DNA of 44,509 nt from sequence record PZ049723.1. One strand, given 5' to 3'. This stretch comes from a phage. The position numbers were made by a program, and so were the translations under genes. How positions within the stretch are numbered: the first letter of the stretch is position 1; every line of letters starts with the position of its first letter. Of the stretch, positions 10,160 to 44,509 are shown piece by piece. The notes beneath the pieces are model-generated. The model saw nothing but the letters and a program-made list of their open reading frames with translations. It had not been told where the DNA came from and did not search any database.

Positions 10160-10480
10160 TTATTCAGTCTCAGACGAGGGGGGCCGCCGACCCCCGTCTA
10201 GTCTGAAAGACTGGTGGTTGTCCCGCCTGTCCCGATCGGCTAAAAACCGCGGCAGCACTGGCGGGGACGGGGTGCTGTCCCGCTTTGTCCCGTCCCTTAT
10301 TTGTCCCGCTTTTTGTCCCGCTTAGTTTATGCAATAAAACTGCATAGGTATGCATATTTGCGGGGTGGGACAAAGCGGGACGTCCCGTCTGTCCCGCTTT
10401 TAGTTTATGCAATAAAAGTAAATAGGTATGCGGTTTTTGAGGGGCGGGACAAAACGGGATGTACCGCTTGTCCCGCTTCA
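10160..10480. repeat. Composite non-coding element, copy A (stem-loop + GTCCCGC arrays + TATGCA palindromes)
   Basis: 10160-10214 is a 55-nt GC-rich stem-loop identical except 2 nt to 27166-27220; 10269-10345 matches 27275-27351; about 12 GTCCCGC/GCGGGAC heptamers including palindrome CGGGACGTCCCG; TTAGTTTATGCAATAAAA box present twice. Confidence 0.7.
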
Positions 10481-15244: not shown

Positions 15245-15946
15245 TTACTCGTCGCCCATTTTAGCGATGATATCCCCGGCCTGTTTGGTGAGATCGGTGA
15301 TACCGAAGCTATGGCCCATCGTAATTTTCGACTTCACATCTTCGACAACCTGCGTCGGTTTGCTAGGCGCGCCGCCTGCTGGCGTGCCAGCCAGGACGGA
15401 TGCAAAATCGGCGTTATTACGGAACTCTTTTTCCAGCTCTTCCATAGTCAGCGCGGACGGTTTGCCATCCTGCAATACTCGCACTTTCAAGCTGCCGTCT
15501 TCGCCGTCTTCCAGCGTCAGGCGGTCCATTACGTGGCGTTGCATGATGCCCGCATTCTTACCGAACAGCTTCGACGCCAGGTCTTTGGCAGCGCTGCCGA
15601 TGGTTAGATCGTGGATCTGCTTGCGGTAGGCTTCGATTTTTCCCGATGTGTCTGCTTCGTGTTTCGCAAACTTATCTTTCCAGGACTTGTCGATCGCTTC
15701 GAGGTCGCCATTTTTGCGCGCGGCGGCTTCCTCTTTCTCTTTCGCAAGGCGCTCAGCTTCGGCGCGGCGTTCGGCTTCTGCTTTCTTCTCGCTCACCAGC
15801 TTCGCGTTGTTGTCTTTCAGACCCTTAATTTCCGCCTGTACTTCTTCTGCGGTCATGAACGTTGATTTATACCCGTCGCCATCGGCAACAAAAAGCGCCT
15901 TCATACCTTCCGGCAACGCGTCATATTCTGCTTTAGTAAGTTTCAT
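15245..15946 (-). CDS. Scaffolding protein (putative)
   Basis: ATG at 15946 with GGGGGA RBS; 233 aa, highly charged with an Ala/Glu/Lys/Arg coiled-coil stretch; directly upstream of major capsid gene. Confidence 0.55.
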   Translation of the reverse strand: MKLTKAEYDALPEGMKALFVADGDGYKSTFMTAEEVQAEIKGLKDNNAKLVSEKKAEAERRAEAERLAKEKEEAAARKNGDLEAIDKSWKDKFAKHEADTSGKIEAYRKQIHDLTIGSAAKDLASKLFGKNAGIMQRHVMDRLTLEDGEDGSLKVRVLQDGKPSALTMEELEKEFRNNADFASVLAGTPAGGAPSKPTQVVEDVKSKITMGHSFGITDLTKQAGDIIAKMGDE

Positions 15947-16036: not shown

Positions 16037-16065
16037 TTGCAATCATCGTATTGGTTGCATATATT
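16037..16065 (+). promoter_or_regulatory. Sigma70-like promoter with embedded TTGGTTGCA motif pair
   Basis: TTGCAA (16037-16042), 17-bp spacer, TATATT (16060-16065); TTGGTTGCA at 16051-16059 and 16065-16073; GAGGA RBS and ATG at 16095 follow. Confidence 0.45.
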
Positions 16066-16094
16066 GGTTGCACACCAACAACGAGGACACAAAA

Positions 16095-16859
16095 ATGAGA
16101 CTGACGAAAGACATTAAAAACCAGATTCTGGCTAACATCCTGCGCGACCACGAAATCGCGACCGAAGCCAAATCAATAATGATGGACTCGCGCGACCTTG
16201 CGTACGCCATTACGCTGGACTGTATGCCGGAAGGCATTCGCACGTTCGCCGAGCTATTCGCGCACATTGAAGCAATCAGCGATGACCCGTCGCAGATGTA
16301 CGGCGTCTGCGTATACACCAACAAGGCGACGTATAGTTATAACACCGACCGCCCGAAAGGTATCGGCAGCGTTTACGACGCCACTTTCGAAATCAATGCG
16401 GGCGGAAATGTGCGCACACTGTCATTGAGCGGTGACGGACGACAATACCGAGTACATCGCGGATACTGGGAATATAAATACATGAATAAGCTATCTCCCG
16501 ATCTCGGCGATATTGTACCTGGGTACGAAGAAGTAATGCTGGCTTCTGTGTGCGAAGTGGACGAGGATGGGAAAGCGCTGCCGATCTATAAGCCGCGCTG
16601 TCGTGCAGAGTTCCCGGCGGATCATGATTTCTGCAAGCGCCTTGACCGTAACGATAAGGCCCGCCGCGATTTGCGAGCTAAGTATGACGCGTTCAAACTC
16701 ACCGTTACCGGTGTGCTGGACCTGCACAATACTGACAAGAAGCTGATTAAGGCATGGCCTGAAGTTGAGCAATTCATACCATACCCGGACAAGCAAAAAT
16801 CCACGGCGGTGGCGCTGGACGTGAAAACACTCAACGAGATTTGCGGCATTCCGCGCTAA
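16095..16859 (+). CDS. Hypothetical protein; opposite-strand moron inside the structural cluster
   Basis: 255-aa ORF with own promoter-like sequence, GAGGA RBS and bidirectional terminator; only plus-strand gene between 234 and 30437; no recognisable motif. Confidence 0.6.
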   Translation: MRLTKDIKNQILANILRDHEIATEAKSIMMDSRDLAYAITLDCMPEGIRTFAELFAHIEAISDDPSQMYGVCVYTNKATYSYNTDRPKGIGSVYDATFEINAGGNVRTLSLSGDGRQYRVHRGYWEYKYMNKLSPDLGDIVPGYEEVMLASVCEVDEDGKALPIYKPRCRAEFPADHDFCKRLDRNDKARRDLRAKYDAFKLTVTGVLDLHNTDKKLIKAWPEVEQFIPYPDKQKSTAVALDVKTLNEICGIPR

Positions 16860-16864
16860 CAAAA

Positions 16865-16893
16865 AGGGGCCATTACGGCCCCTTAATTATTTG
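16865..16893. terminator. Bidirectional hairpin terminator
   Basis: aggggcc-attac-ggcccct stem flanked by AAAAA upstream and TAATTATTTG downstream; between convergent gene ends. Confidence 0.55.
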
Positions 16894-21862: not shown

Positions 21863-21992
21863 GATATAAGCCCTTTTGTGCATATGCGCCGACCATCGGC
21901 AACATAGGAGACGGCCCTGCCATCTAATTGGGATTATAACAGGCACAAAAAAGCCCACCAAATCGGCAGGCTGGGAGGGTTACGGGTCGCCG

Positions 21993-23135
21993 TTACTTCA
22001 ACATTTCCGGGCTAATGGTTAAGCGCGCTACTTCGCCGTAGTTGGCGCTGTAGGTGATGACGTTTGCGCTGCGGCCGGACATCCAACCGCCACGACTGGC
22101 GTAGGCGTCTTTCGCTGCGAGCGTCCTGTGCTGTTCAACAATCATGTTGCGGGATTCAACAATCTTCTGGTGGTGCAAATGGCCTACGTGCGCGTAGCTG
22201 TATTCGCTCGACCCGAACGCCTGTCTGAATTTAGCGATCATAACCTGCTCGATAACATCGAATCGCGCTTTGTGCCCGTGGTGGAAGAACAGCGTTGTTT
22301 TACCGTGCTGCACCATTTTGTAGACGTCCGGGGACGTATCCACATCGACGCGCGGCTCGTTCTCATACAGAGTATTGAACATCTCCGCCAGCCAGATCAT
22401 GCCAGACTCGTCATGATTACCCTGGACGATTAGAAGTTTGACTTTGTGGTGTTTTTGCAGCGCCAGCTCCACCACGTTGCGCACCATGCGAATCATGTAG
22501 CGGACCAGCTTCTGGTATCGGGTATCCGCGTCCAGGATGTGACCGCTGGCAGGTGTGACGGCATCAAGGCTATCAAAGTGCGCCATATCACCGAGGATAT
22601 TAATTACGGCAGTGCCTGCGTCCGGTGCGCGTGCAAAGGCTTCGACAAACCAGCGGTAGAACAGGTCTTCGGCAATCGCCATATCCCAGTCCTCGCCAGT
22701 CTCCTCGCCCCAGGCCAGCATCCCCAGGTGGAAGTCTGACACGGTGTACAGGTTGAGTAGGTCAAGTGCCTGGATCGGTACTGGCGGGGAGCTTACTGGT
22801 GCTGCCGGTGTGATTTCGCTGTTCATGCCCTCGACAACGGCGCGCATTGCTTCAAGCTGGCGCTCTTTGTCCTGCTCTGTGATAACCCACGACATGACCT
22901 CTTCGCCATTGCCACGCACCAGGGCGGAGACACGCTTCACGCCGAAGCCATCGGCAACGCGCTTACGGATTACGGCATCATTACCGTGACCAATACCTTT
23001 CTTCGACAGGCGGGCTTTGCGCATGTAGACGTTTCGTAGGGAAAGGCCGTACTTCTTCGCAATCTCTTTCGCGGTAGTGCCGGATTGCAACTCGGCGATC
23101 AATTGCTCGTCGGTGATTTTAGTTTGCGGGTGCAT
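21993..23135 (-). CDS. HTH domain fused to calcineurin-like metallophosphoesterase
   Basis: 380 aa; N-terminal helix-turn-helix (TAKEIAKKYGLSLRNV); phosphoesterase motifs SDFH, GDMAHFD, GNHDE, HHGH, GHLHH; ATG at 23135. Confidence 0.7.
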   Translation of the reverse strand: MHPQTKITDEQLIAELQSGTTAKEIAKKYGLSLRNVYMRKARLSKKGIGHGNDAVIRKRVADGFGVKRVSALVRGNGEEVMSWVITEQDKERQLEAMRAVVEGMNSEITPAAPVSSPPVPIQALDLLNLYTVSDFHLGMLAWGEETGEDWDMAIAEDLFYRWFVEAFARAPDAGTAVINILGDMAHFDSLDAVTPASGHILDADTRYQKLVRYMIRMVRNVVELALQKHHKVKLLIVQGNHDESGMIWLAEMFNTLYENEPRVDVDTSPDVYKMVQHGKTTLFFHHGHKARFDVIEQVMIAKFRQAFGSSEYSYAHVGHLHHQKIVESRNMIVEQHRTLAAKDAYASRGGWMSGRSANVITYSANYGEVARLTISPEMLK

Positions 23136-23196
23136 ATTAATTCACTTCCAGATTATGGGACCGAGGACAATATACCACGGCCCATATTGTGGCGGG

Positions 23197-23277
23197 TTAT
23201 AGCAATTCGCAAATAACCATACCGATAAACGCTGCGGCGGACCAGATTGCCAATACCCAAATATCACTACGTGCCAT
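23197..23277 (-). CDS. Small hydrophobic peptide (26 aa), speculative
   Basis: ATG at 23277 preceded by GAGGAG RBS; MARSDIWVLAIWSAAAFIGMVICELL; between promoter-like sequence and phosphoesterase gene. Confidence 0.25.
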   Translation of the reverse strand: MARSDIWVLAIWSAAAFIGMVICELL

Positions 23278-23307
23278 AGTGTAATACTCCTCTCGTTGAT
23301 TGGTAGC

Positions 23308-23337
23308 AGTATGGTCTGATAGTTGGTTGCAAGTCAA
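23308..23337 (-). promoter_or_regulatory. Promoter-like sequence at head of the structural operon
   Basis: Minus strand TTGACT (23337-23332), TGCAACCAA motif, about 18-bp spacer, CATACT (23313-23308); follows the lysis-operon terminator. Confidence 0.4.
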
Positions 23338-23340
23338 GCA

Positions 23341-23366
23341 ATAAAAAGCCCGGAATTAACCGGGCT
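23341..23366 (-). terminator. Rho-independent terminator after lysis-region operon
   Basis: agcccgg-aattaa-ccgggct 7-bp stem followed on minus strand by TTTTTAT. Confidence 0.6.
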
Positions 23367-26213: not shown

Positions 26214-26479
26214 TTGCTCAGTCTCCAGTGTTTGCCTACCCGCTCAACGGCGGGCTTCCGGCGTAATGTAATACGGATCCCCATTGGTTGCAAGGAGGTC
26301 CGCACCCTGAAATCGTGTTGTGCTGCGAACTGGTGCAAGTAGCGAGTCTGCGTCAACGGCTTTACGTCGTCGCGATAGCACCAGAATACAGATTCACCCT
26401 CAACCGCATTCTCAGCCCATATTCGTATGCAATGCAGGGGAATATGCCACGAAAGCTGTTTGGCGCGCCTACGGCTCAT
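26210..26479 (-). CDS. Hypothetical protein
   Basis: 89 aa ORF with overlapping stop/start to neighbours. Confidence 0.4.
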   Translation of the reverse strand: MSRRRAKQLSWHIPLHCIRIWAENAVEGESVFWCYRDDVKPLTQTRYLHQFAAQHDFRVRTSLQPMGIRITLRRKPAVERVGKHWRLSK

Positions 26480-26956: not shown

Positions 26957-27015
26957 TTCTACCCTCCTGTTGGTGTGCAACCAATGTAGCAAGGTGCCGG
27001 GTTGGATGCAACCAA
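26957..27015 (-). promoter_or_regulatory. Promoter-like sequence with two TTGGTTGCA motifs and conserved leader
   Basis: On minus strand TTGGTTGCAT, 17-bp spacer, TACATT, then GGTTGCACACCAACA and GGAGGG RBS; the last 15-mer is shared exactly with 16066-16080. Confidence 0.45.
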
Positions 27016-27165
27016 TATTAATCACGCGCATGAAAAAGTTGATCGCTATCTGCTGTAGCTGCAAACTGCATTTTTCACCCACCATTCTACATATCGCATT
27101 GGTTGCCTAGTTCACCCACGACCGCGATTCGCATCCTGCTGCCGTGTATTTTGCAATCCCGGATT

Positions 27166-27351
27166 TTATTCAGTCTCAGACGAGGGGGGCCGTTGACCCC
27201 CGTCTAGTCTGAAAGACTGGGGTGCTGTCCCGCTGTCCCGCTCCTCGCCAGGCCGCGCCATCCGGGGCGGGACGGGGGTGCTGTCCCGCTTTGTCCCGCC
27301 CCTTGGCTGTCCCGCTTTTTGTCCCGCTTAGTTTATGCAATAAAACTGCAT
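27166..27351. repeat. Composite non-coding element, copy B
   Basis: 27166-27220 stem-loop identical to 10160-10214 except the loop (gccgTTga vs gccgCCga); 27275-27351 near-identical to 10269-10345; GTCCCGC arrays and TATGCA-N7-TGCATA palindrome. Confidence 0.7.
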
Positions 27352-27433
27352 AACTATTCACTATATTTACACTACACGGCAACCAATGCGACCAGCTAAA
27401 AACACTCGAAATGGCAACCAATGCGACCAGAAT

Positions 27434-27664
27434 TTAATCTTTTAAATCATCATCGGTCGCAGAAAGCGTGATGGGTATACTCGTTTTAATGACAATATTC
27501 GACGACCCGTAGATGGCCCCGGTGTGCGGATCGGTATAAAAACCGAGCACGCCGCGCTCGACCATATCGTCGATTGCCTTCGTCGATGTGCCACCTTTCG
27601 CCAGCCCAGCCTGGCGGACAATTGCCGATTTACTGAATCCGGTATGGTCCGGGTTATCTTCCAT
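27434..27664 (-). CDS. Small HTH DNA-binding protein (putative regulator)
   Basis: ATG at 27664 overlaps the helicase stop (ATGA); 76 aa; helix-turn-helix-like SKSAIVRQAGLAKGGTSTKAIDDMVERG; a longer in-frame start at 27691 is possible. Confidence 0.5.
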   Translation of the reverse strand: MEDNPDHTGFSKSAIVRQAGLAKGGTSTKAIDDMVERGVLGFYTDPHTGAIYGSSNIVIKTSIPITLSATDDDLKD

Positions 27665-29040
27665 CAGTTTTTCCAGTGCCGCATAAAGCACTTTCTCTTT
27701 TCGTTGCGCGGTCCCGCGGCGTTCTCTTCCTTAACTGCTGCCTTGCCCGCGGCCTTCGCCTGTTCGATGGCGAACGGTGCCAGGGCGACCGGTACGAGGT
27801 ACAGAGTCTCGTCGCGAGGCGTGGAGGCAATCGGCTTGACGTCCCAACCGGCGACCACATCACCGAAGTCCGGCCCGGTGCTGGTGGACTGGTGGGCTTC
27901 GAACGCCTCGGACTTGCGGAGATCCACCTTAACCTTGCACTTGAGCAGGACGAAGCCGCGCGGCGCTTGCTTGATGCCGTTACGTGCCTTTTCGTGATAC
28001 AGGTTAAGTTGTCCCGGCTGGTTGTCGTCCGGCTGTTCCAGGAAGAACGCGGAATCAACAGCACCATGAAGCGCGCCGGACCCGCGTGGCGTTCTGCTGC
28101 CGTTTGCACCTTTAGCAGGGTGGTGGATGACGCCCGCACTGCCGCCTGTATTTTCCGCAATGGCCTTCAGCGCCTTGACCACTTCGCCCATATCGCTGGC
28201 GTTGTTCTCGTCGAACGGTTTAGCATCGGCGGACCGCAGCGCAACAGTCTGGTTGAGTGAGTCGAATGCCACCAGGCCAACCGGTTCGCCGTTAGCGGTG
28301 CGGTTGATAAAGCTGATAACTTCGCGCAAGCCCGATTTGCTGGTGATATCCCAGCCGCGTGACTGCAGATCGATAATGTGCAGCTTGTCCAGGTCGTGCT
28401 CGTATTTAATCTGCAATGCCTCCTTACGCTGGTTGGAGGCTTCGCCACCTTCCGCGTCGAAATAGAAGCAATGAGACTGGACGACCTTCGCACCGCCAAA
28501 CGGAATACCCGCGGCAACCGCACCCATCTGCCCCAGCACGTAGAACGATTTACCGATGTTCGATTCGCCAGCCATATACCAGGTCGATTTGAAGTTAATC
28601 AACCCCTCGATGATCGGGTCGTGCTTACTGAACAGCGCAACCGGCTCGTTGTCCAGGTCTGCATCGGTGCACACGCCGTATTCTTCGCCGTCGCCAACTG
28701 CATCAACGATATGTTCATAGCAGGATTCCACTTCCTCGTCGTCCAGTCCTGGAAGGATGGCGGCGATTTGCTTGCGGGACATATTGTGTGGCTCGACGTT
28801 CAGGTGGTCCGGGATCCCGATAAGACGCAGCGCCAGGTGCTGGTGTCTGTTCAGTTCCGAGCAACACTCGTTGCCGGTGTGCATACACTTGAAACGGATC
28901 TCGCCATCCTTGACCATGATAGCCGTCGACCCTTCGCCGCTGTGCAGATGTTCGTTCGGGCACGGCACTTCATAACCCCGACCGGACGACAGCGGTTCGA
29001 ATCCGGCCTGGAAGCACCAATCCAGAATGCCGTCAGCCAC
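27664..29040 (-). CDS. Replicative helicase with N-terminal Zn finger (RecA-fold, RepA/DnaB-like)
   Basis: Walker A GESNIGKS and Walker B-like LVAFDSL; N-terminal Cys/His cluster (CPNEH ... CMHTGNECC); ORF opens immediately after an in-frame TAA and has only a GTG start. Confidence 0.65.
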   Translation of the reverse strand: MADGILDWCFQAGFEPLSSGRGYEVPCPNEHLHSGEGSTAIMVKDGEIRFKCMHTGNECCSELNRHQHLALRLIGIPDHLNVEPHNMSRKQIAAILPGLDDEEVESCYEHIVDAVGDGEEYGVCTDADLDNEPVALFSKHDPIIEGLINFKSTWYMAGESNIGKSFYVLGQMGAVAAGIPFGGAKVVQSHCFYFDAEGGEASNQRKEALQIKYEHDLDKLHIIDLQSRGWDITSKSGLREVISFINRTANGEPVGLVAFDSLNQTVALRSADAKPFDENNASDMGEVVKALKAIAENTGGSAGVIHHPAKGANGSRTPRGSGALHGAVDSAFFLEQPDDNQPGQLNLYHEKARNGIKQAPRGFVLLKCKVKVDLRKSEAFEAHQSTSTGPDFGDVVAGWDVKPIASTPRDETLYLVPVALAPFAIEQAKAAGKAAVKEENAAGPRNEKRKCFMRHWKN

Positions 29041-29696
29041 CCCATCATCGCCCTGGGTAAGCTCGCGGCGTACTTCCTCTTCTCCACCCCCAGCTTATCC
29101 GCCAGGCGGAGCAGACGACGGACGCTGGCGCGTTTGCCGTAGTGGCACTTAACGACAGACTGCTGATGTGGCAGGTACATAAGGCGGTTTGTGTCTTTAG
29201 TACAATCGTCGAAGTCCACATCTGACAGACCCAGTTGGTGTAATAGTGCATACTGGACGCGGCCCAGGTCTTCAGCCGGTACAGGCTTGTCCGTGAGCAC
29301 CAGGAAACGGGCGCAACGCGTGCCGCCTTTCAGCGGGTGGCGGTCGCCGGTTGTGGTGTGAAATACGTGCTCCAGTCCCGCGTCGATGAACGCCTTACGG
29401 CAGCGGCGTAGGGTGCGGGTGTCGGTACGGTCGATATCGAAGAACATGATCGAGCGGTCCACCGCACTGGTCTTACGACGCAATCCGTCACGGGTATACG
29501 CCACGATGCCATCGGCCTTACGCTTGCGGCGCGCATACTCGGCTTTATCTTCCGTCTTGTTGATATGCACCGAGGAGATTTCTTTCGCATCATTGATAAA
29601 GGCGAAAAACTCTTCGGTAGTCATCTGGAAGTTTTCCGCCCTGGCTTTTTCGCCTTTTTTAGCGGGTCGTGTTACAGCGAATTTAATTAAGCTCAT
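28851..29696 (-). CDS. Primase-like replication protein, N-terminal part; 3' end overlaps helicase out of frame
   Basis: ATG at 29696; DxD-like FFDIDRTD and HTTTGDRHP motifs; last ~60 codons are Arg/Ser/Cys-rich and read as the wrong frame of the helicase N-terminus; G5 run at 29087-29091. Confidence 0.4.
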   Translation of the reverse strand: MSLIKFAVTRPAKKGEKARAENFQMTTEEFFAFINDAKEISSVHINKTEDKAEYARRKRKADGIVAYTRDGLRRKTSAVDRSIMFFDIDRTDTRTLRRCRKAFIDAGLEHVFHTTTGDRHPLKGGTRCARFLVLTDKPVPAEDLGRVQYALLHQLGLSDVDFDDCTKDTNRLMYLPHQQSVVKCHYGKRASVRRLLRLADKLGVEKRKYAASLPRAMMGWLTAFWIGASRPDSNRCRPVGVMKCRARTNICTAAKGRRLSWSRMARSVSSVCTPATSVARN

Positions 29697-29706
29697 TGCC
29701 GTGGCC

Positions 29707-30036
29707 TTACTTAGAAGTTTTATTATTGCGTACCCAAGAGCGCACTGTGCTCTGATTAATTCCGGTCAACTCGGCAATCATCGCCCAGGATTTGCCCTCG
29801 GCGCGCAAACGGATAACCTGCTTTTTGTATTCTTCCATTTCTTCATTGTGTTTTTGCAGCTTGCTTGCTGCCGTACCGTTGAGTAATTCCAGCCGGGCGC
29901 GCAATTCTTTTTCGACACTGCGCAGGCGCTCGATTTCAAATAACACCGCACCCACGGCATCGGTATAAGCCCATGACCGGCTTGTCTCACTGCAAACAGT
30001 CTTCGTTAACATTTCGATTGCGTCGTTTACATTCAT
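29707..30036 (-). CDS. HTH transcriptional regulator (LuxR/sigma region-4-like C-terminal HTH)
   Basis: 109 aa; C-terminal SWAMIAELTGINQSTVRSWV; first gene of the leftward operon from the divergent promoter region. Confidence 0.6.
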   Translation of the reverse strand: MNVNDAIEMLTKTVCSETSRSWAYTDAVGAVLFEIERLRSVEKELRARLELLNGTAASKLQKHNEEMEEYKKQVIRLRAEGKSWAMIAELTGINQSTVRSWVRNNKTSK

Positions 30037-30067
30037 TGTTCTGCCCTCAGTTGGTTAATGACCAACG

Positions 30068-30096
30068 AAACTACACCTAAAACCGCAAGGTGTCAA
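30068..30096 (-). promoter_or_regulatory. Leftward early promoter
   Basis: Minus strand TTGACA (30096-30091), 17-bp spacer, TAGTTT (30073-30068); about 30 nt upstream of the regulator gene RBS. Confidence 0.45.
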
Positions 30097-30166
30097 ATCC
30101 TTTGGATATTGAAACGGGCGCGCACGCGTGTAATAATAATTCCCGTCTCATTGTCTCTTATTGGTT

Positions 30167-30201
30167 AGCGCCGTCGCATTTTGCCTCGGCGCTTTTTTTT
30201 T
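30167..30201 (+). terminator. Rho-independent terminator in divergent promoter region
   Basis: agcgccg / cggcgct 7-bp stem with 13-nt loop followed by nine T residues. Confidence 0.6.
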
Positions 30202-30211
30202 AAATTAGTTG

Positions 30212-30241
30212 TTGACACCCATCCTGCAACCAATCTATTAT
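30212..30241 (+). promoter_or_regulatory. Rightward early promoter (strong sigma70 consensus)
   Basis: TTGACA (30212-30217), 18-bp spacer containing TGCAACCAA (30225-30233), TATTAT (30236-30241). Confidence 0.6.
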
Positions 30242-30437
30242 TCTCCCCGTCGACAGGATGCAGGACGCAAACTGGAGAGGGGCAACGCAGGGGCCGGATC
30301 GAAGTGTCAGGATTCCCAACCGTGATTATATAACCAGGTCCACTACCCGAAGGGGAGAACGCGTAACCTGGCAATATGTTAAGGCCACCGACGAAGTTAA
30401 CTGCCGACACCTAAACTTAACCAATCGGAGATATACC

Positions 30438-32869: not shown

Positions 32870-33104
32870 AGTATTCGCAATCTTATTGATGTTTTTGCTC
32901 GGCGCGCTGGGCTTTATCCTGCATTGCGTGCAAGGCGTGTTAATGGTGGCCTGGATGATTCGCCATCCAACCCAATGGCTGGATGATGGATACAGCACCA
33001 TTGCCGTGGCGTGGATCGCGAGACATGGCGACCGACCGCCGCTAAGCTGGATCGAGAACGCCACCAACTACGTTACCCGAAATCTTTTTAATGAAAATGC
33101 TTGA
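32862..33104 (+). CDS. Small membrane protein
   Basis: 80 aa with two hydrophobic helices; ATG overlaps the upstream stop. Confidence 0.45.
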   Translation: MNKVFAILLMFLLGALGFILHCVQGVLMVAWMIRHPTQWLDDGYSTIAVAWIARHGDRPPLSWIENATNYVTRNLFNENA

Positions 33105-33129
33105 CCGCTTAGGCGCAACCAAGTAGATT
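33101..33129 (+). promoter_or_regulatory. Promoter-like sequence upstream of SSB-like gene
   Basis: TTGACC (33101-33106), 17-bp spacer containing GCAACCAAG (33115-33123), TAGATT (33124-33129); second GCAACCAAG at 33131-33139. Confidence 0.4.
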
Positions 33130-33194
33130 AGCAACCAAGCCGAACGGGGTGGCTTCCAATAGCCCCGATACATGTGAAAATGAGGAATTGGAAA

Positions 33195-36497: not shown

Positions 36498-36775
36498 TGA
36501 CACCAGAAGGCAAGATTCAAAGTCACCTGATGAGACGGGTGAAAGATGTTGGCGGATTCTGCCGAAAACTGGCATGGGAGGGGCGCGCAGGTGCGCCCGA
36601 CCTGATTATTATCATCAACGGCAAAATAGTGTTCGTCGAAGTGAAGCGCCCCGGCGGAAAACCGAAGCCGCACCAGGTACGTGAACATGAGAGGATGGCC
36701 CGCCGCGGCGCGGACGTTCGCGTTATAGACAACATCGCCGACTGTGATTTATTGGTTGCTGAATTGGTCGCATAG
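36497..36775 (+). CDS. VRR-NUC domain nuclease
   Basis: ATG at 36497 overlapping the polymerase stop; 92 aa; GAPDLIIIINGKIVFVEVKRPGGKPKPHQ matches the VRR-NUC D...E.K core. Confidence 0.7.
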   Translation: MTPEGKIQSHLMRRVKDVGGFCRKLAWEGRAGAPDLIIIINGKIVFVEVKRPGGKPKPHQVREHERMARRGADVRVIDNIADCDLLVAELVA

Positions 36776-36784
36776 CGGTATAGT
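36756..36784 (+). promoter_or_regulatory. Promoter-like sequence inside 3' end of VRR-NUC gene
   Basis: TTGGTTGCT at 36751-36759 supplies TTGCTG (36756-36761); 17-bp spacer; TATAGT (36779-36784); GAGGA RBS follows. Confidence 0.35.
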
Positions 36785-38680: not shown

Positions 38681-39387
38681 CTATTGCTAAAATGACAATC
38701 TGGCCATTATTCGACGGCAGCGGGTTGATGATTGAGCGTGCTGCCGAGATGGGGCATAAGTGTTATTGCTTCAACTACTCCGAAGCCGATCACGGGTCTT
38801 ACCTTGACTACCGGATCTATGGTCGCGGAATCCGCTATCGTAATGAGTTTATCGATCTGGACTTCGTGGACCGCGCGATGAATGGTGATTTTGGAACGCC
38901 GGATATCATCTATGCGTTCCCTCCGTGTACGGATCTGGCCGTGAGCGGCGCGCCAGCTTTCCCGCGCAAGCGTGCAAAAGACCCTGCCTTCCAGCTTAAG
39001 GCGGTGCGCACCGCGAAGATCGCCGCTTACCTGGGTGATTTCTTCGAAGTGCCGTACATGATTGAGAATCCGCGCAGTGTGCTTTCCACCAAGTGGCGCA
39101 AGCCAGACCACTCGTTTGACCCGTGGGAGTATGGGGGATATCTGCCGGAGGATGACGTACACCCGCTCTTCCCGGAATACATCAACGCCCGCGATTCATA
39201 TCCGAAGCTGACCTGCTTGTGGACCGGCAACGGCTTCCGTATGCCGGAGAAAAAGCCTGTATTCGTTGAAAAAGGGTACTCGAAGCAGTATAGTCGCCTC
39301 GGAGGCAAATCAGCCCGCACAAAATTAATCCGGTCGCTCACCCCGCGCGGCTTCGCGATAGCAGTCAATGAGGAAAATTTAAAATGA
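38677..39387 (+). CDS. Short DNA cytosine-5 methyltransferase-like protein
   Basis: 236 aa; motif I-like LFDGSG, catalytic-type FPPC (PCT rather than PCQ), ENP (motif VI-like ENV); apparently lacks a long target-recognition region. Confidence 0.45.
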   Translation: MTIAKMTIWPLFDGSGLMIERAAEMGHKCYCFNYSEADHGSYLDYRIYGRGIRYRNEFIDLDFVDRAMNGDFGTPDIIYAFPPCTDLAVSGAPAFPRKRAKDPAFQLKAVRTAKIAAYLGDFFEVPYMIENPRSVLSTKWRKPDHSFDPWEYGGYLPEDDVHPLFPEYINARDSYPKLTCLWTGNGFRMPEKKPVFVEKGYSKQYSRLGGKSARTKLIRSLTPRGFAIAVNEENLK

Positions 39388-39707
39388 ATACTACATTCGA
39401 AGCCATTGATTTTTCGGTTGCAATGACTAACCAGTTATTCTCCTACGACAGCAAAACCGGAGTCATCCGTCTGAAGTCCACAGGCTGCAAAATTGGCAAC
39501 ATCAATACTGCCGATGGTGGCACACGTATCGAATGCAACGGCAAAACGCTATCGGGCGCCCGCGTGGCGTGGATCATTGAGACTGGCAATACAATCCCTC
39601 CAGGCTATGCCGTAGTGTGCCGTCAACGCACACCAGGCCATTACGGCAACCGCATTAGTAACCTGTATCTGGTAGACGTTGCGCGCGACCCAAATTTTTA
39701 TTCGTAA
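39384..39707 (+). CDS. HNH-like (HNH_3/NUMOD-type) endonuclease-like protein
   Basis: 107 aa; pattern ARVAWIIETGNTIPPGYAVV ... GNRISNLYLV resembles HNH_3 cores, but the usual first His is not evident. Confidence 0.4.
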   Translation: MNTTFEAIDFSVAMTNQLFSYDSKTGVIRLKSTGCKIGNINTADGGTRIECNGKTLSGARVAWIIETGNTIPPGYAVVCRQRTPGHYGNRISNLYLVDVARDPNFYS

Positions 39708-39708
39708 A

Positions 39709-39741
39709 TTGGTTGCATAACCGTATTGGTTGCATTATATT
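39709..39741 (+). promoter_or_regulatory. Promoter-like sequence formed by tandem TTGGTTGCA motifs
   Basis: TTGGTTGCA at 39709-39717 and 39726-39734; TTGCAT (39713-39718), 17-bp spacer, TATATT (39736-39741). Confidence 0.4.
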
Positions 39742-41173: not shown

Positions 41174-41640
41174 AATTACTGATTTGTGATCTGGATGGCG
41201 TTATTAACGGTTCAAGTGATGCGCGCGCCGACCTGGTGCCGGGGATAAAAACGAAATCAACATTTTGGGCGAAGTGGCACAAAGCGCACGTACGCGAAGA
41301 CCTGAACATGGATATGCTGCCGCTACTGCGCATGTACAAAGAGCAAGGCTTCGAGATCGCGTATCTGACCAACCGGCAGCGCGAATGTTGGGACACCACC
41401 GCCGAGCAATTGGAGGTCTTCCCCGTAGGTCGATTGTTCATGCGCCACATGCTGGACGACACCCCGCCGCCAGAGTTTAAGGCGTGCGCCGTTTTCAAAA
41501 TGGTCTGCTATGCGGACGTGTCGGAACTGGTCATCATTGAAGACTGTCCGAAGAACATCGCGGCAATTCGTCGGGCGTGTGGCGATCTGGTCCCGAAAAT
41601 TTACGCAATAAACGTTGCAAAATTCACTTGCAACCAATAG
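41170..41640 (+). CDS. HAD-superfamily phosphatase
   Basis: 156 aa; N-terminal HAD motif I ICDLDGVI; GAGGAA RBS. Confidence 0.6.
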   Translation: MKLLICDLDGVINGSSDARADLVPGIKTKSTFWAKWHKAHVREDLNMDMLPLLRMYKEQGFEIAYLTNRQRECWDTTAEQLEVFPVGRLFMRHMLDDTPPPEFKACAVFKMVCYADVSELVIIEDCPKNIAAIRRACGDLVPKIYAINVAKFTCNQ

Positions 41641-41657
41641 GTTGGTTGCACTATAGT
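41628..41657 (+). promoter_or_regulatory. 22-bp perfect palindrome TGCAACCAA-TAGG-TTGGTTGCA embedded in promoter-like sequence
   Basis: TTGCAA (41628-41633), 18-bp spacer made of the palindrome, TATAGT (41652-41657); a GC hairpin (41667-41687) and AAGGA RBS follow. Confidence 0.45.
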
Positions 41658-42268: not shown

Positions 42269-42844
42269 ATGTACGGCGAATATGAAATATCCGGTAAACA
42301 ATTCCACCTGGCGGCAATGATAGCAAGCATCGAGTTTGATCAATGGCGCTTAAAGTCTGACGCATGCAAGCAAAGCCGACTGGTCGGTGTGCTGGGCGAA
42401 ATGTTTGCGGGCATGTATCTCGAAGGGCAAGCAGGCGGTCGCAGTTGTATACCGCAGGGTCTGCTCATGCGTACCGGCCTGTTTAGCGCCAACACCATTG
42501 ACCGCGGCGATATCATCATGGTCGGCAAGCGCAAGGTTAAGTCCGGTCCAGACTTCCGCGAGCATGTGGTCGATGCCGTATGGACCTACGAGGTTAAGGC
42601 CACCAGCGGCATCCGTAGGGGCCTGGTTGAGGCACGTTGCGCTCGCGAGTATCTCACTCGTCGAGTTGCCGGTGTTATTCTGGTTGGGGTATCGTTCGGG
42701 CAACATAGCGCCAGCGGCGTGATCGAGGATATTGCGGAGCCATACGTGATAGTGAACGACTGGCCCCTGGTGGAAGTGGACGGAAAGGAATATTACGAAA
42801 GCCCGCTTGTGCGGCGAAAAATAGACTGGGAAAACTCAAACTAA
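42269..42844 (+). CDS. Hypothetical protein
   Basis: 191 aa; GAGGA RBS; contains DAVWTYEVKA, which could be a PD-(D/E)XK-like D...E.K core but is unverified. Confidence 0.5.
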   Translation: MYGEYEISGKQFHLAAMIASIEFDQWRLKSDACKQSRLVGVLGEMFAGMYLEGQAGGRSCIPQGLLMRTGLFSANTIDRGDIIMVGKRKVKSGPDFREHVVDAVWTYEVKATSGIRRGLVEARCAREYLTRRVAGVILVGVSFGQHSASGVIEDIAEPYVIVNDWPLVEVDGKEYYESPLVRRKIDWENSN

Positions 42845-42871: not shown

Positions 42872-44443
42872 TTATTTCTCCGCCAACTTACTTTCTAAGG
42901 CCTCAATCTTCGCCGCCAAATGCTGAACAGTCGCGACAAGGTCAAGTAGCAGGACGTTTTCGTCTAATGCCAGAAACTCTTTACCAGTTGCGTCGGCGTA
43001 CTTGCGAACATACTGCGGGTCGATCTCTTCCAACTGCTGCGCGATAAAACCACGTCTGACCGTTTCCTTTTTGTCGTAATTATAAACAAAGGAAGAGTAT
43101 TCCATAGCCATGACGTTAGTGTATGCAACTTGAGTATCGATCCGGGCGATATCATGCTTCAGCGCCCTGTCGGATACCGGGGATTTTGAGAAAATATAGT
43201 TAACCGACCCAGTGTTGTTGCCGAAGGTAATATCGTATGACTCGGCGTTAAAGAAAGTATTCCGAATGATATCGCCGTTAGGCTGTATTCCTGACGCCAT
43301 ATCATAGTCATAGACCTGCGAAATCATAGCGTTAGGGTGTGACGACACCGATGTGGGGTGGATCAACGCCCCGAACGAAATAAAGTTACGCCACCCGCCA
43401 CCAGTCGCACCAGTGCCGCCGCCGACAAAACCTACGTGACCCGAGTATTGACCGTTATTCCATGTATTCGCGAGGGTGACGTAGGTATTACCAGGCGACG
43501 CCCCGGTGGACGCTGGATTCAATCCTTTGTTAAAGATGATCTTGCCATCATATTTAAAGTCCCACGACGGCGAGGTGCTTGGATCGAGGGCGTTAACGGT
43601 TGCCAAACGGGTCCAGATGTCTACGTTATTACGCCCCTGAATCTGAAGCGATGTTCTGTATTTTTCGCCCCCGGCAACGAACACAGATGAGTCAAATCGA
43701 CCGCCGTATACTTCTGTGCCATTCGCCGGATCTGAAGCGTAATTATTGCGTAAACCCCATAGTCCCACGTCATCAAGACCGCGCCACACCCACCCTTTAG
43801 TCGCAGAGTCAAGAGGGTCGACTGGGTCCGCGCCTACGCGAAGCGGTCCTGACGGCATAAGGTTAGCCCACGACGCACTTTTGTCCGCAAGCCCGGCGAG
43901 GTTGCCGGATTTGGTTAGCAGATTGTCTGGGTTTACGCTTTGCGCCCATTCTTCGGCCTCATTGCGAAATCCTTGCGCTGCTGCTTCTGATGCCGCGGCT
44001 TGTTGTTGCAGGTTGCGCATTTCAACGGGGTCAACTTCCTTCAGCAATTGCGAAAGATAGCCCCACGACATACCCTGCATAACTTGCCCGTTCGGCAGCG
44101 TTACCGTGATTTCCTCAGCGTCACCGAAGATTGCACGCCAGTTGTTTTCGTCCGCGATCATCAAGCGCAATGCTTTCTGTGCCTGGACTGTTACGCCCAT
44201 CGTCGCCAGTGACATGGTATCGCGCGCAACGCCATCCCAGGCAAGGCCGGTTGCCGTGGGGCCGTCGAACGGCAGCACCAGCGTAAGCGCGGTGTCGCTT
44301 TCGACGGACGCGATAGCAACAGTGTAAGGGACTTGCCCCACCACCAGCGTTAAGAAGTCGCCAGCTTTAAACGCGGTGAACGTCGTGCCTACCCCGACAA
44401 CCGCCTTGCTGTTATTCGTTACGGATAGTGTACCCGCTGCCAT
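42872..44443 (-). CDS. Tail fibre protein with C-terminal intramolecular chaperone (peptidase S74-type) domain
   Basis: ATG at 44443 with GAGGA RBS (an upstream in-frame ATG at 44470 lies inside a TTGGTTGCA motif); C-terminal RGFIAQQLEEIDPQYV ... LAAKIEALESKLAEK matches the chaperone-domain signature. Confidence 0.7.
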   Translation of the reverse strand: MAAGTLSVTNNSKAVVGVGTTFTAFKAGDFLTLVVGQVPYTVAIASVESDTALTLVLPFDGPTATGLAWDGVARDTMSLATMGVTVQAQKALRLMIADENNWRAIFGDAEEITVTLPNGQVMQGMSWGYLSQLLKEVDPVEMRNLQQQAAASEAAAQGFRNEAEEWAQSVNPDNLLTKSGNLAGLADKSASWANLMPSGPLRVGADPVDPLDSATKGWVWRGLDDVGLWGLRNNYASDPANGTEVYGGRFDSSVFVAGGEKYRTSLQIQGRNNVDIWTRLATVNALDPSTSPSWDFKYDGKIIFNKGLNPASTGASPGNTYVTLANTWNNGQYSGHVGFVGGGTGATGGGWRNFISFGALIHPTSVSSHPNAMISQVYDYDMASGIQPNGDIIRNTFFNAESYDITFGNNTGSVNYIFSKSPVSDRALKHDIARIDTQVAYTNVMAMEYSSFVYNYDKKETVRRGFIAQQLEEIDPQYVRKYADATGKEFLALDENVLLLDLVATVQHLAAKIEALESKLAEK

Positions 44444-44509
44444 AGCTGAATCCTCATAAATTGGTTGCATTCTTGGTCGAGCGGTGCAATACTAAAACTC
44501 AACCAAATA

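Follow-up and report, generated by a model that had tools for sequence, protein, structure and literature searches.

Sequence record PZ049723.1, a stretch of 44,509 bp that was analysed whole and is called the window here, is the complete genome of a Dhillonvirus, an HK578-like virulent coliphage. A 9-bp motif, TTGGTTGCA/TGCAACCAA, recurs in it far above chance and sits on the core elements of ten sigma70-like promoters. The motif is real and functional, and it is very probably an operator-type regulatory site. Our preferred reading, to which we give a probability of about 0.55, is that it is a cis-acting operator within sigma70-type promoter cores, at which a bound protein would block RNA polymerase, and that it also lies beside the likely replication origin.

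Dhillonviruses (HK578, SSL-2009a, SECphi4/18, BASEL Bas14/TheodorHerzl) are widely used in phage-defence and phage-therapy work. For these phages the motif supplies a promoter map, a testable single regulon, a predicted origin region, and promoter and operator parts for engineering. The same word is used in two genera with different syntenic regulators, which poses sharply the question of who reads it.

A short motif is enriched in non-coding DNA

The window is 91 to 96% identical to ZCEC12, the bov phages, TheodorHerzl/Bas14, and many others. Its orientation is opposite to that of Bas14, whose annotation was transferred to it to give the gene map. Non-coding DNA accounts for about 2,534 bp, or 5.7% of the genome. 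An earlier note, made from the letters of this DNA alone, had described the motif as recurring at mostly non-coding sites and had proposed a comparison with shuffled controls. That comparison bore the description out: we counted 12 exact copies where 0.44 are expected, a number that none of 100 shuffles reached. With one mismatch allowed, there were 27 copies against 11.5 expected, again with 0 of 100 shuffles reaching the count. An unbiased k-mer screen of the window returned ATTGGTTGC as the top 9-mer (14 against 0.54 expected) and ATTGGTTGCA as the top 10-mer (10 against 0.12).

Of the 12 exact copies, nine lie wholly in intergenic DNA (binomial P = 1.2e-9). Two others lie at gene ends, one at 41629 in the last codons of the phosphatase gene and one at 44461 over the start of the tail-fibre gene on the opposite strand. 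The last, at 26284, may be a chance occurrence, since about 0.4 are expected genome-wide.

The positions listed in the earlier note all exist, several of them displaced by one nucleotide: copies begin at 16064, 33114, 33130, 36752, and 41629 rather than at 16065, 33115, 33131, 36751, and 41628. Missing from that list were the exact copy at 26284 and the one-mismatch copies at 36764 and 27002, the latter overlapping 27007. In what had been called a perfect 22-bp palindrome at 41628-41650, only the two 9-nt arms are perfect; the 4 nt between them, TAGG, are not palindromic. A 15-nt leader, GGTTGCACACCAACA, is indeed identical at 16066-16080 and on the minus strand, where it lies at 26968-26982 and not at 26960-26974.

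The window and five diverged relatives contributed 79 distinct sites to a sequence logo, in which the invariance of TTGGTTGC is fixed by the way sites were selected. Position -1 is A in 62 of the 79 sites, position 9 is most often A, then G or C, and rarely T, and the flanks are uninformative. The consensus is A-TTGGTTGC-(A>G,C), i.e., (A)TTGGTTGC(A), which at about 10 bp is slightly longer than first stated. The motif is asymmetric, and the logo shows neither a second half-site nor a regular partner. Hence, it has the form of a monomer-type asymmetric site.

Copies lie on the core elements of sigma70-like promoters

The copies associated with promoters all fall on the -35, the spacer, or the -10/+1 of a sigma70-like promoter whose spacer is 17 to 18 bp long. 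The copies span about -39 to +11 and occur in both orientations, as listed here with the one copy found deep within a gene.

16037-16072 (+): P1, TTGCAA-17-TATATT, driving the Nmad5 cargo gene 16095-16859; two forward copies, 16051-16059 (spacer, about -21 to -13) and 16064-16072 (about -8 to +1)
26976-27015 (-): P2, TTGCAT-17-TACATT with the -35 from 27011, serving the leftward small-gene and lysis operon; copies at 27007-27015 (the -35) and 26976-26984 (overlapping -10/+1), with an overlapping one-mismatch inverted partner at 27002-27010 (+)
39709-39741 (+): P3, TTGCAT-17-TATATT with the -35 from 39713; copies at 39709-39717 (the -35) and 39726-39734 (filling the spacer, about -22 to -14)
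41628-41657 (+): P4, TTGCAA-18-TATAGT; an inverted pair, 41629-41637 reversed and overlapping the -35, 41642-41650 forward in the spacer
30212-30241 (+): P5, TTGACA-18-TATTAT (11 of 12 matches), at the start of the rightward early operon and its structured RNA leader; one reversed copy, 30225-30233 (spacer, about -23 to -15)
33101-33138 (+): P6, TTGACC-17-TAGATT, ahead of the genes for SSB and DNA polymerase; both copies reversed, CGCAACCAA in the spacer (33114-33122) and AGCAACCAA immediately past the -10 (33130-33138)
23300-23337 (-): P7, TTGACT-18-CATACT, just after a terminator and driving gene 21993-23135; reversed copies at 23323-23331 (directly after the -35) and 23300-23308 (about -7 to +2), the latter TGCTACCAA in the window and exact TGCAACCAA in most relatives
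36752-36784 (+): P8, TTGCTG-17-TATAGT with the -35 from 36756, within the last codons of the VRR-NUC gene; copies TTGGTTGCT at 36752-36760 (the -35) and TTGGTCGCA at 36764-36772 (spacer)
44461-44493 (+): P9, TTGCAT-17-AATACT with the -35 from 44465, reading across the window end; copies at 44461-44469 (the -35) and, degenerate, TTGGTCGAG at 44473-44481 (spacer), in the same 12-bp arrangement as in P8
30051-30096 (-): promoter of the operon of a helix-turn-helix (HTH) gene and the helicase-primase gene, TTGACA-17-TAGTTT at 30068-30096; site TTGGTCATTAACCAA at 30051-30065 (about -4 to +11), exact TGCAACCAA in contig L017 and with an AACCAA core invariant in relatives
26284-26292 (+): the sole exact copy deep within a gene; no promoter context was seen

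The placements fall into three slots. In slot 1 the forward motif, as TTGGTTGCAT, is itself the -35 (P2, P3, P8, and P9). Slot 2 is the proximal spacer, where copies stop 0 to 2 bp short of the -10; P1, P3, and P4 have them forward, P5 and P6 reversed. Slot 3 runs from about -8 to +3, with a forward copy in P1 and P2 and a reversed one in P6 and P7. Two copies are found at most promoters, direct or inverted, at spacings of 9, 12, 13, 16 to 17, 22 to 23, or 31 bp; the rare inverted pairs have gaps of 4 to 5 bp.

The earlier note had the motif either filling the spacer or supplying the -35, and we found both arrangements at recognisable hexamers. Its account of the promoter at 26976 needed correction: this promoter is on the minus strand, and its -35 TTGCAT comes from the 27007 copy. 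The motif was absent at other promoter-like sites in the window, namely those preceding terS (TTGGTG-17-TATAAT, in overlap with a terminator), the tape-measure gene (TGaTACAAT), and gene 15248-15946 (TTGCGA-16-TAATAT). Hence, the motif marks a regulon, a subset of promoters, and not promoters generally. The suggestion of a phage-specific promoter or operator class holds for an operator class, given the enrichment, core-promoter placement, and conservation. It is not supported for a new promoter type: these are ordinary sigma70-type promoters with an added site, and other promoter-like sites in the window are motif free.

Two loci close to these promoters are recorded here. The P1 locus (16037-16884) is a cargo-gene site that points against the structural genes and is closed by a bidirectional terminator at 16864-16884; P1 drives the Nmad5 (nucleotide-modification) gene in the window; in Bas14 it drives another gene, with the annotation DNA polymerase III beta-like. 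Between two divergent early promoters, 30109-30200 (+) may give a short transcript, with an extended -10 promoter (TTGAAA-17-TGtAATAAT) followed about 30 nt on by a terminator (GCGCCG...CGGCGC plus a T9 run); it includes the motif-like ATTGGTTAGC.

The motif is conserved across two phage genera

Each promoter was aligned with up to 18 related loci. The motif and the hexamers were unchanged while the intervening bases varied, as seen in the spacers of P2, P5 (upstream half), and P7 (middle). ATTGGTTGC is the top 9-mer, or among the most enriched, in the diverged metagenomic relatives L013-L017, L019, L021, and L024. The replication and lysis proteins of these relatives are only about 40 to 85% identical to those of the window, and their orthologous promoters have the same design: where the window has P5, L017 and L019 carry TTGACG-CAACCAACGCAACCAATC-TATTAT, and where it has P7, TTGACGTGCAACCAAT...AATACT.

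The Edwardsiella phage eiAU-183 (Eiauvirus) came to light when viral contigs were scanned for tandem pairs of the motif; its major capsid protein, large terminase, and DNA polymerase are 60, 65, and 63% identical to those of the window. In eiAU-183, TGCAACCAA occurs 14 times against 0.41 expected, and the 8-mer 23 times against 2.0. The architecture is the same: TTGGTTGCAT is the -35, and the spacer or the -10 holds another copy. The scaffold gene is preceded by TTGCAC-CGCAACCAA...TAGTAT. Position -1 is mostly G in eiAU-183, where the Dhillon-like phages have A. Hits of the scan outside the Dhillon/Eiau phages were uninformative, being mostly 9-, 12-, or 16-bp tandem repeats, some of them coding. 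The motif was not enriched in the syntenic Guernseyvirinae FSL SP-031 (2 against 1.7 expected) and phiEap-2 (3 against 1.8). We conclude that the motif is under purifying selection across two phage genera.

A proposed operator that would act by occlusion

How might such a site work? We propose that one sequence-specific protein recognises the asymmetric 10-bp site, as a monomer or as a flexibly linked oligomer. Seated on the -35, the proximal spacer, or the -10/+1, in most cases at two sites of a promoter, the bound protein would exclude RNA polymerase. The replication, nucleotide-metabolism, lysis, and cargo operons would then come under a single coordinated control that is also linked to the origin. 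An activator that contacts polymerase normally needs a fixed position and orientation. The same slots are occupied here in both orientations, which fits steric occlusion better than oriented polymerase contact. Moreover, the core-promoter placement, the two orientations, and downstream copies that end at about +1 are arguments for recognition of the motif in DNA rather than in RNA. It also has the look of an add-on, as the structured RNA module that follows P5 (described below) has motif-free promoters in other phages.

Which protein might bind? We rank first, for Dhillon-like phages only, an HTH protein, second a mini-HNH protein (39384-39707), and third a host factor.

29707-30036 (-): candidate binder 1, 109 amino acids, first gene of the helicase-primase operon

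This protein scores above the Pfam gathering thresholds for HTH_23 (30.9 bits, cutoff 24.6), HTH_28 (28.4, cutoff 25), and Sigma70_r4_2 (27.7, cutoff 25.7), and is a Hin/resolvase-type HTH protein (HTH_23/HTH_7 clan). Its AlphaFold model, with a mean predicted local distance difference test (pLDDT) score of 83, has a long helix (residues 23-79) followed by a C-terminal HTH (helices 84-91 and 95-107). Fold matches were generic (LuxR/GerE, resolvase, and IstA HTH), none at E <= 0.001. The C-terminal 60 residues are invariant in 18 homologues with differing N termini, and the protein and the motif occur together in every Dhillon-like phage examined. Hin-type HTH domains can read about 10 to 12 bp as monomers, as at Hin/hix sites. 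The promoter of the gene itself has a motif site over +1, a placement that would be the usual signature of autoregulation.

The earlier note had offered three HTH proteins as possible binders. The one at 29707-30036 is a genuine HTH protein and is present in all Dhillon-like phages, although it is missing from the motif-bearing eiAU-183. The frame at 27434-27664 encodes no protein of its own but the C-terminal part of a frameshift-split helicase-primase. The N terminus of 21993-23135 gave only sub-threshold HTH matches, and this gene is missing from relatives that keep the motif.

Several observations weigh against the occlusion reading or its first candidate. We found no homologue of 29707-30036 in eiAU-183 (tblastn, none; hmmsearch, best E 0.84), and yet this phage has the same motif; in the syntenic slot it encodes gp29, which is of Cro/XRE type and shares 38% identity with gp15 of SP-031, a phage without the motif. 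In L024 the homologue (P0026, 45% identity) has an altered recognition helix, and yet the motif is unchanged. Hence, no covariation ties the motif to the HTH protein. A comparison of recognition helices with motifs, in which the HTH was invariant in most homologues and diverged in one, was uninformative to mildly negative. The -35 TTGCAT matches TTGACA at 3 of 6 positions, and such moderate promoters could need help rather than a block; a dual repressor/activator role, by analogy with phi29 p4, is possible. For a lytic phage, damping of almost every early and middle promoter would serve no evident purpose; negative feedback and titration by replicating DNA are possibilities. Some copies stem from promoter duplication, P1 and P2 sharing TAyATTGGTTGCACACCAACA. 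Finally, the searchable literature holds no description of the motif, of Dhillonvirus/HK578 promoters, or of Eiauvirus promoters. The eiAU genome paper concluded that the phages are virulent and does not discuss promoters or repeats (PMC3025963).

A host factor or a small HNH protein as a possible binder

Perhaps a host protein conserved in Enterobacterales (E. coli, Sodalis, and Edwardsiella) binds the site, and two phage genera exploit it independently? The Dhillon-like phages and eiAU-183 have the motif in common despite different regulators in the syntenic slot (Hin-type HTH versus Cro/XRE gp29), and no regulator-type protein common to both genera was found, the mini-HNH protein excepted. 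The ATTGGT part resembles half-sites of the GntR/FadR family (PdhR), and GTTGCA resembles the CytR octamer. However, PdhR needs a dyad with a 3-bp gap, CytR leaves the invariant TTG unexplained, and we are aware of no E. coli factor with a site that fits all ten of the conserved positions. The difference at position -1, A in Dhillon-like phages and G in eiAU, suggests co-evolving phage factors instead. Guernseyvirinae phages of similar hosts make no use of the motif. We consider a host factor unlikely.

39384-39707 (+): candidate binder 2, a 107-amino-acid mini-HNH / NUMOD4(AP2)-like protein

The second candidate matches only the centre of the HNH endonuclease family phrog_99, namely the NUMOD4/AP2-like sheet and the HNH core. 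It is encoded by a syntenic core gene after the SNF2 helicase gene in Dhillon phages, L017, L024, and eiAU; the two genes are adjacent in relatives, and a Dcm gene intervenes in the window. Its divergence is about equal to that of core genes. The protein is absent from SP-031 and phiEap-2, so that its distribution equals that of the motif exactly, in a comparison of only three independent lineages. It tracks the motif better than 29707-30036 does. The pattern is not unique, as the PF05869 Dam-like methylase and many structural genes are distributed likewise; among the small non-structural proteins common to the window and eiAU-183, only the mini-HNH protein is of a type that binds DNA sequence-specifically. 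No match came from a profile search of PDB sequences, and an AlphaFold model made without an alignment had a pLDDT of 41. There is some chance, a low one, that this protein is the binder, a relic of a homing endonuclease turned monomeric DNA binder or nickase that would link the origin to about ten promoters. The route from endonuclease to AP2 transcription factor is known from plants and apicomplexans, and such a binder, if true, would be a bacteriophage parallel to it.

Three other proteins were considered. The eiAU protein gp54 is encoded at 42367-42720 (-) of L151 (eiAU-183) by a reversed gene that separates the tape-measure chaperone genes from the tape-measure gene. A GRPR arm precedes the C-terminal HTH of gp54 (a match to Hin-type HTH_7 with E 0.013, under the Pfam cutoff), and two motif copies, TTGGTTGCATTGTTGGTTGCACACTGCTATAGT, make up the promoter of the gene (42934-43017). 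As a hidden homologue of 29707-30036 it was rejected, with an hhalign probability of 0.5%, and Dhillon phages have no copy of it.

The C-terminal winged-helix-like domain of the helicase-primase diverges strongly, and the iterons of the origin region change alongside while the motif stays constant. Hence, this domain more likely reads the iterons. The helicase-primase is a single 754-amino-acid protein in Bas14. In the window it is split into three overlapping frames, 28851-29696, 27664-29040, and 27434-27664 (-), and the split could be a sequencing error, a pseudogene, or programmed frameshifting; a homology search with the 76-amino-acid fragment gave a single match.

Gene 21993-23135 was set aside on the grounds given above. 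It has metallophosphatase-domain matches below the curated cutoff for either Pfam model. P7 transcribes this gene only, with terminators on either side, so that 21952-23366 (-) is a single-gene cassette with its own motif promoter. In diverged Dhillon-like contigs without the gene, the same promoter precedes other small genes or terS.

Possible activation of weak promoters

The bound factor might instead activate or redirect polymerase, much as T4 MotA/AsiA, lambda CII, or phi29 p4 do, replacing -35 recognition at TTGCAT promoters and perhaps repressing the strong TTGACx ones. The promoters do fall into two groups, one with a forward motif and a weak -35, TTGCAT or TTGCTG (P2, P3, P8, and P9), and one with a reversed motif and a strong -35, TTGACx (P5, P6, and P7). 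The HTH protein 29707-30036, moreover, matches sigma-70 region 4 models. However, the position of the motif varies from about -39 to +3, in either orientation, and the promoters with a weak -35 carry a second copy in slots where polymerase would be blocked. Pfam and PHROG scans of the window proteins found no MotA, AsiA, or sigma-region-2 protein. Such activation or redirection is, in our judgment, quite unlikely.

The motif also flanks the likely replication origin

Three copies of the TCGCATTGGTTGCC variant, a form also given as TTGGTTGCC, lie outside promoters, on the flanks of an array of GCGGGACA repeats that follows shortly after the end of the helicase-primase gene. This iteron array is likely the replication origin.

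27099-27107 (+): origin-flanking copy, TCGCATTGGTTGCC variant, on the far side of the GCGGGACA iteron array
27378-27421 (-): two CTGGTCGCATTGGTTGCC units (motif at 27378-27386 and 27413-27421), between the helicase-primase gene end and the iterons

Relatives carry two to three CTGGTCGCATTGGTTGCC-type units between the helicase-primase gene and the iterons. The iterons differ from phage to phage (GCGGGACA in the window, GGGGTGCCA in L024, AATCGCCCCG in eiAU, and GGGGGAGA in SP-031) while the motif is constant. Copies lie beside the origin in every lineage, which suggests that the factor reading the promoter motif acts at the origin too, in the way that DnaA works at oriC as well as at promoters.

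Could the motif be primarily a replication element, i.e., an origin, primosome-loading, or nicking site whose overlap with promoters is secondary? Nine copies cluster at the origin region of eiAU-183, and the protein that best co-occurs with the motif is HNH-nuclease-like. Such an element would leave unexplained the single-base precision with which copies are placed on the -35, spacer, and -10 of ten promoters. The second iteron cluster, at 10276-10477, is without a motif copy, and the orientation of the copies at the origin differs between phages. A mainly replicative role therefore seems improbable to us. The narrower idea that the motif is itself the origin iteron was rejected: the arrays of the window consist of AGCGGGACA, and the motif only flanks one of them, with three copies; the cluster in eiAU-183 comes partly closer to such an array.

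A last alternative, in which there is no trans-acting factor and the copies are remnants of one duplicated ancestral promoter cassette, draws on the 21-nt block shared by P1 and P2 and on BLAST alignment of the P1 region to the P2 regions of relatives, and is very improbable, since the other promoters share only the 9- to 10-bp word, with different positions, orientations, and flanks, and the word is invariant over about 40% protein divergence while adjacent bases change.

Repeats in the window and in other contigs

The AGCGGGACA repeats form two clusters of five, 27226-27328 and 10276-10477, all on the minus strand (10 against about 0.3 expected). Both adjoin a TTTATTGCATAAACTAA element. The 27226-27328 cluster, next to the helicase-primase gene on its downstream side, is the likely origin, and the 10276-10477 cluster lies 17 kb off, among tail genes. 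The pairing recalls the ori/crr pair of phage P4. Annotated small open reading frames at these clusters, homologues of Bas14 genes 18 and 52, are possibly spurious. In unrelated viral contigs (L052 at 310-345; L031, L038, L040, L079, L125, and others) the same 9-mer is arrayed head to tail with a 9-bp period, and some of these arrays are clearly coding (Ala-Thr-Asn repeats). The L052 array is followed by an AT-rich stretch with ATGCATAA-like elements, which resembles the origin region of the window.

A different repeat, GCTGCCGTT/AACGGCAGC, occurs 16 times genome-wide (0.8 expected); the copies lie within genes, in every reading frame and on either strand. The related ACGGCAGC and AACGGCAAC are enriched also in SP-031 and eiAU-183. 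The E. coli Chi sequence, GCTGGTGG, occurs nine times in the window.

A structured RNA in the P5 leader

The P5 transcript begins with a leader of about 165 to 175 nt (about 30250-30415, +) that precedes the real start of the next gene, ATG 30438. We found homologues of this RNA in L025, L027-L030, L154, L156, L158, L163, L164, L166, L167, and L170. The element recurs in Tempevirinae (Motto, PHB17, and JK16), in Sortsnevirus (sortkaff and IME279), in BUCT618, and in several metagenomic contigs. It occupies gaps of 105 to 260 bp, most of them about 200 to 260 bp, between unrelated genes, and the genes downstream of it are mutually unrelated. In the four cases examined (BUCT618, sortkaff, Motto, and JK16), a motif-free sigma70-like promoter or -10 lies just upstream of the RNA.

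The RNA has a 5'/3' closing helix, an invariant hairpin, and a long variable arm rich in compensatory changes. A structure specified by hand from folds was evaluated on 13 distinct sequences: it was 87.9% paired, compared with 30 to 51% in slid controls, and 14 pairs showed compensatory changes, a number that 0 of 500 shuffles reached. Nothing in Rfam matched the region even at E <= 10, the whole window had no hits in Rfam or tRNA scans, and a literature search on the structured RNA found none. The structured RNA may be the most novel feature in the window.

Comparison with known systems

We compared the motif by eye with the consensus sites of Sigma54, DnaA, IHF, NtrC, Tus, CytR, and PdhR; none fits all conserved positions. 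Sigma54 promoters (TGGCAC-N5-TTGCA) have their GG and GC about 10 to 12 bp apart; the distance is 4 bp within the motif and 13, 16, 17 bp or more between paired copies. The DnaA box, TTATNCACA, is matched at four of nine positions. For the PdhR dyad (ATTGGT-N3-ACCAAT) or pairs of CytR octamers (GTTGCATT), the logo offers no dyad partner, and CytR does not account for the TTG. Sigma appropriation at a MotA box needs a box of fixed position (centred near -30) and fixed orientation in place of the -35, whereas position and orientation vary here.

Phi29 p4, T4 MotA/AsiA, and lambda CII are phage factors that bind in or next to the -35 or spacer of host-type promoters; lambda CII recognises TTGC repeats. 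Their sites are fixed in position and orientation, whereas the motif is variable in both. Hence, an early/late switch of the phi29 p4, MotA, or CII kind is not supported. The C-terminal domains of Hin and resolvases (HTH_7/HTH_23) have the same type of HTH as 29707-30036, in which it follows a long helix, and they read asymmetric half-sites of about 12 bp as monomers. Unlike them, 29707-30036 and eiAU gp54 lack a recombinase catalytic domain; homology between these two proteins was not detectable.

The operators of phage P1 C1 are likewise asymmetric, dispersed at many promoters in either orientation, and overlap core elements. They differ in being 17 bp long and unrelated in sequence, and P1 is temperate, whereas lysogeny functions are not known in the present phage group (PMC3025963, for eiAU phages). 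DnaA boxes resemble the motif in being 9-bp asymmetric sites read by a single HTH domain in both orientations, at an origin and at promoters, where they modulate transcription; they differ in that motif copies here are overwhelmingly in promoters and the origin has separate iterons. KorA/KorB of RK2 and omega of pSM19035 are cases in which one short operator is reused to co-regulate replication and other operons, and omega binds short repeats in direct or inverted arrays of variable number. These systems differ in being plasmid-borne, in using palindromic operators (KorA/KorB) or 7-bp heptads (omega), and in belonging to other protein families. By analogy, the closest functional counterparts of the motif would be the P1 C1 operators, the DnaA boxes, and the KorA/KorB and omega sites.

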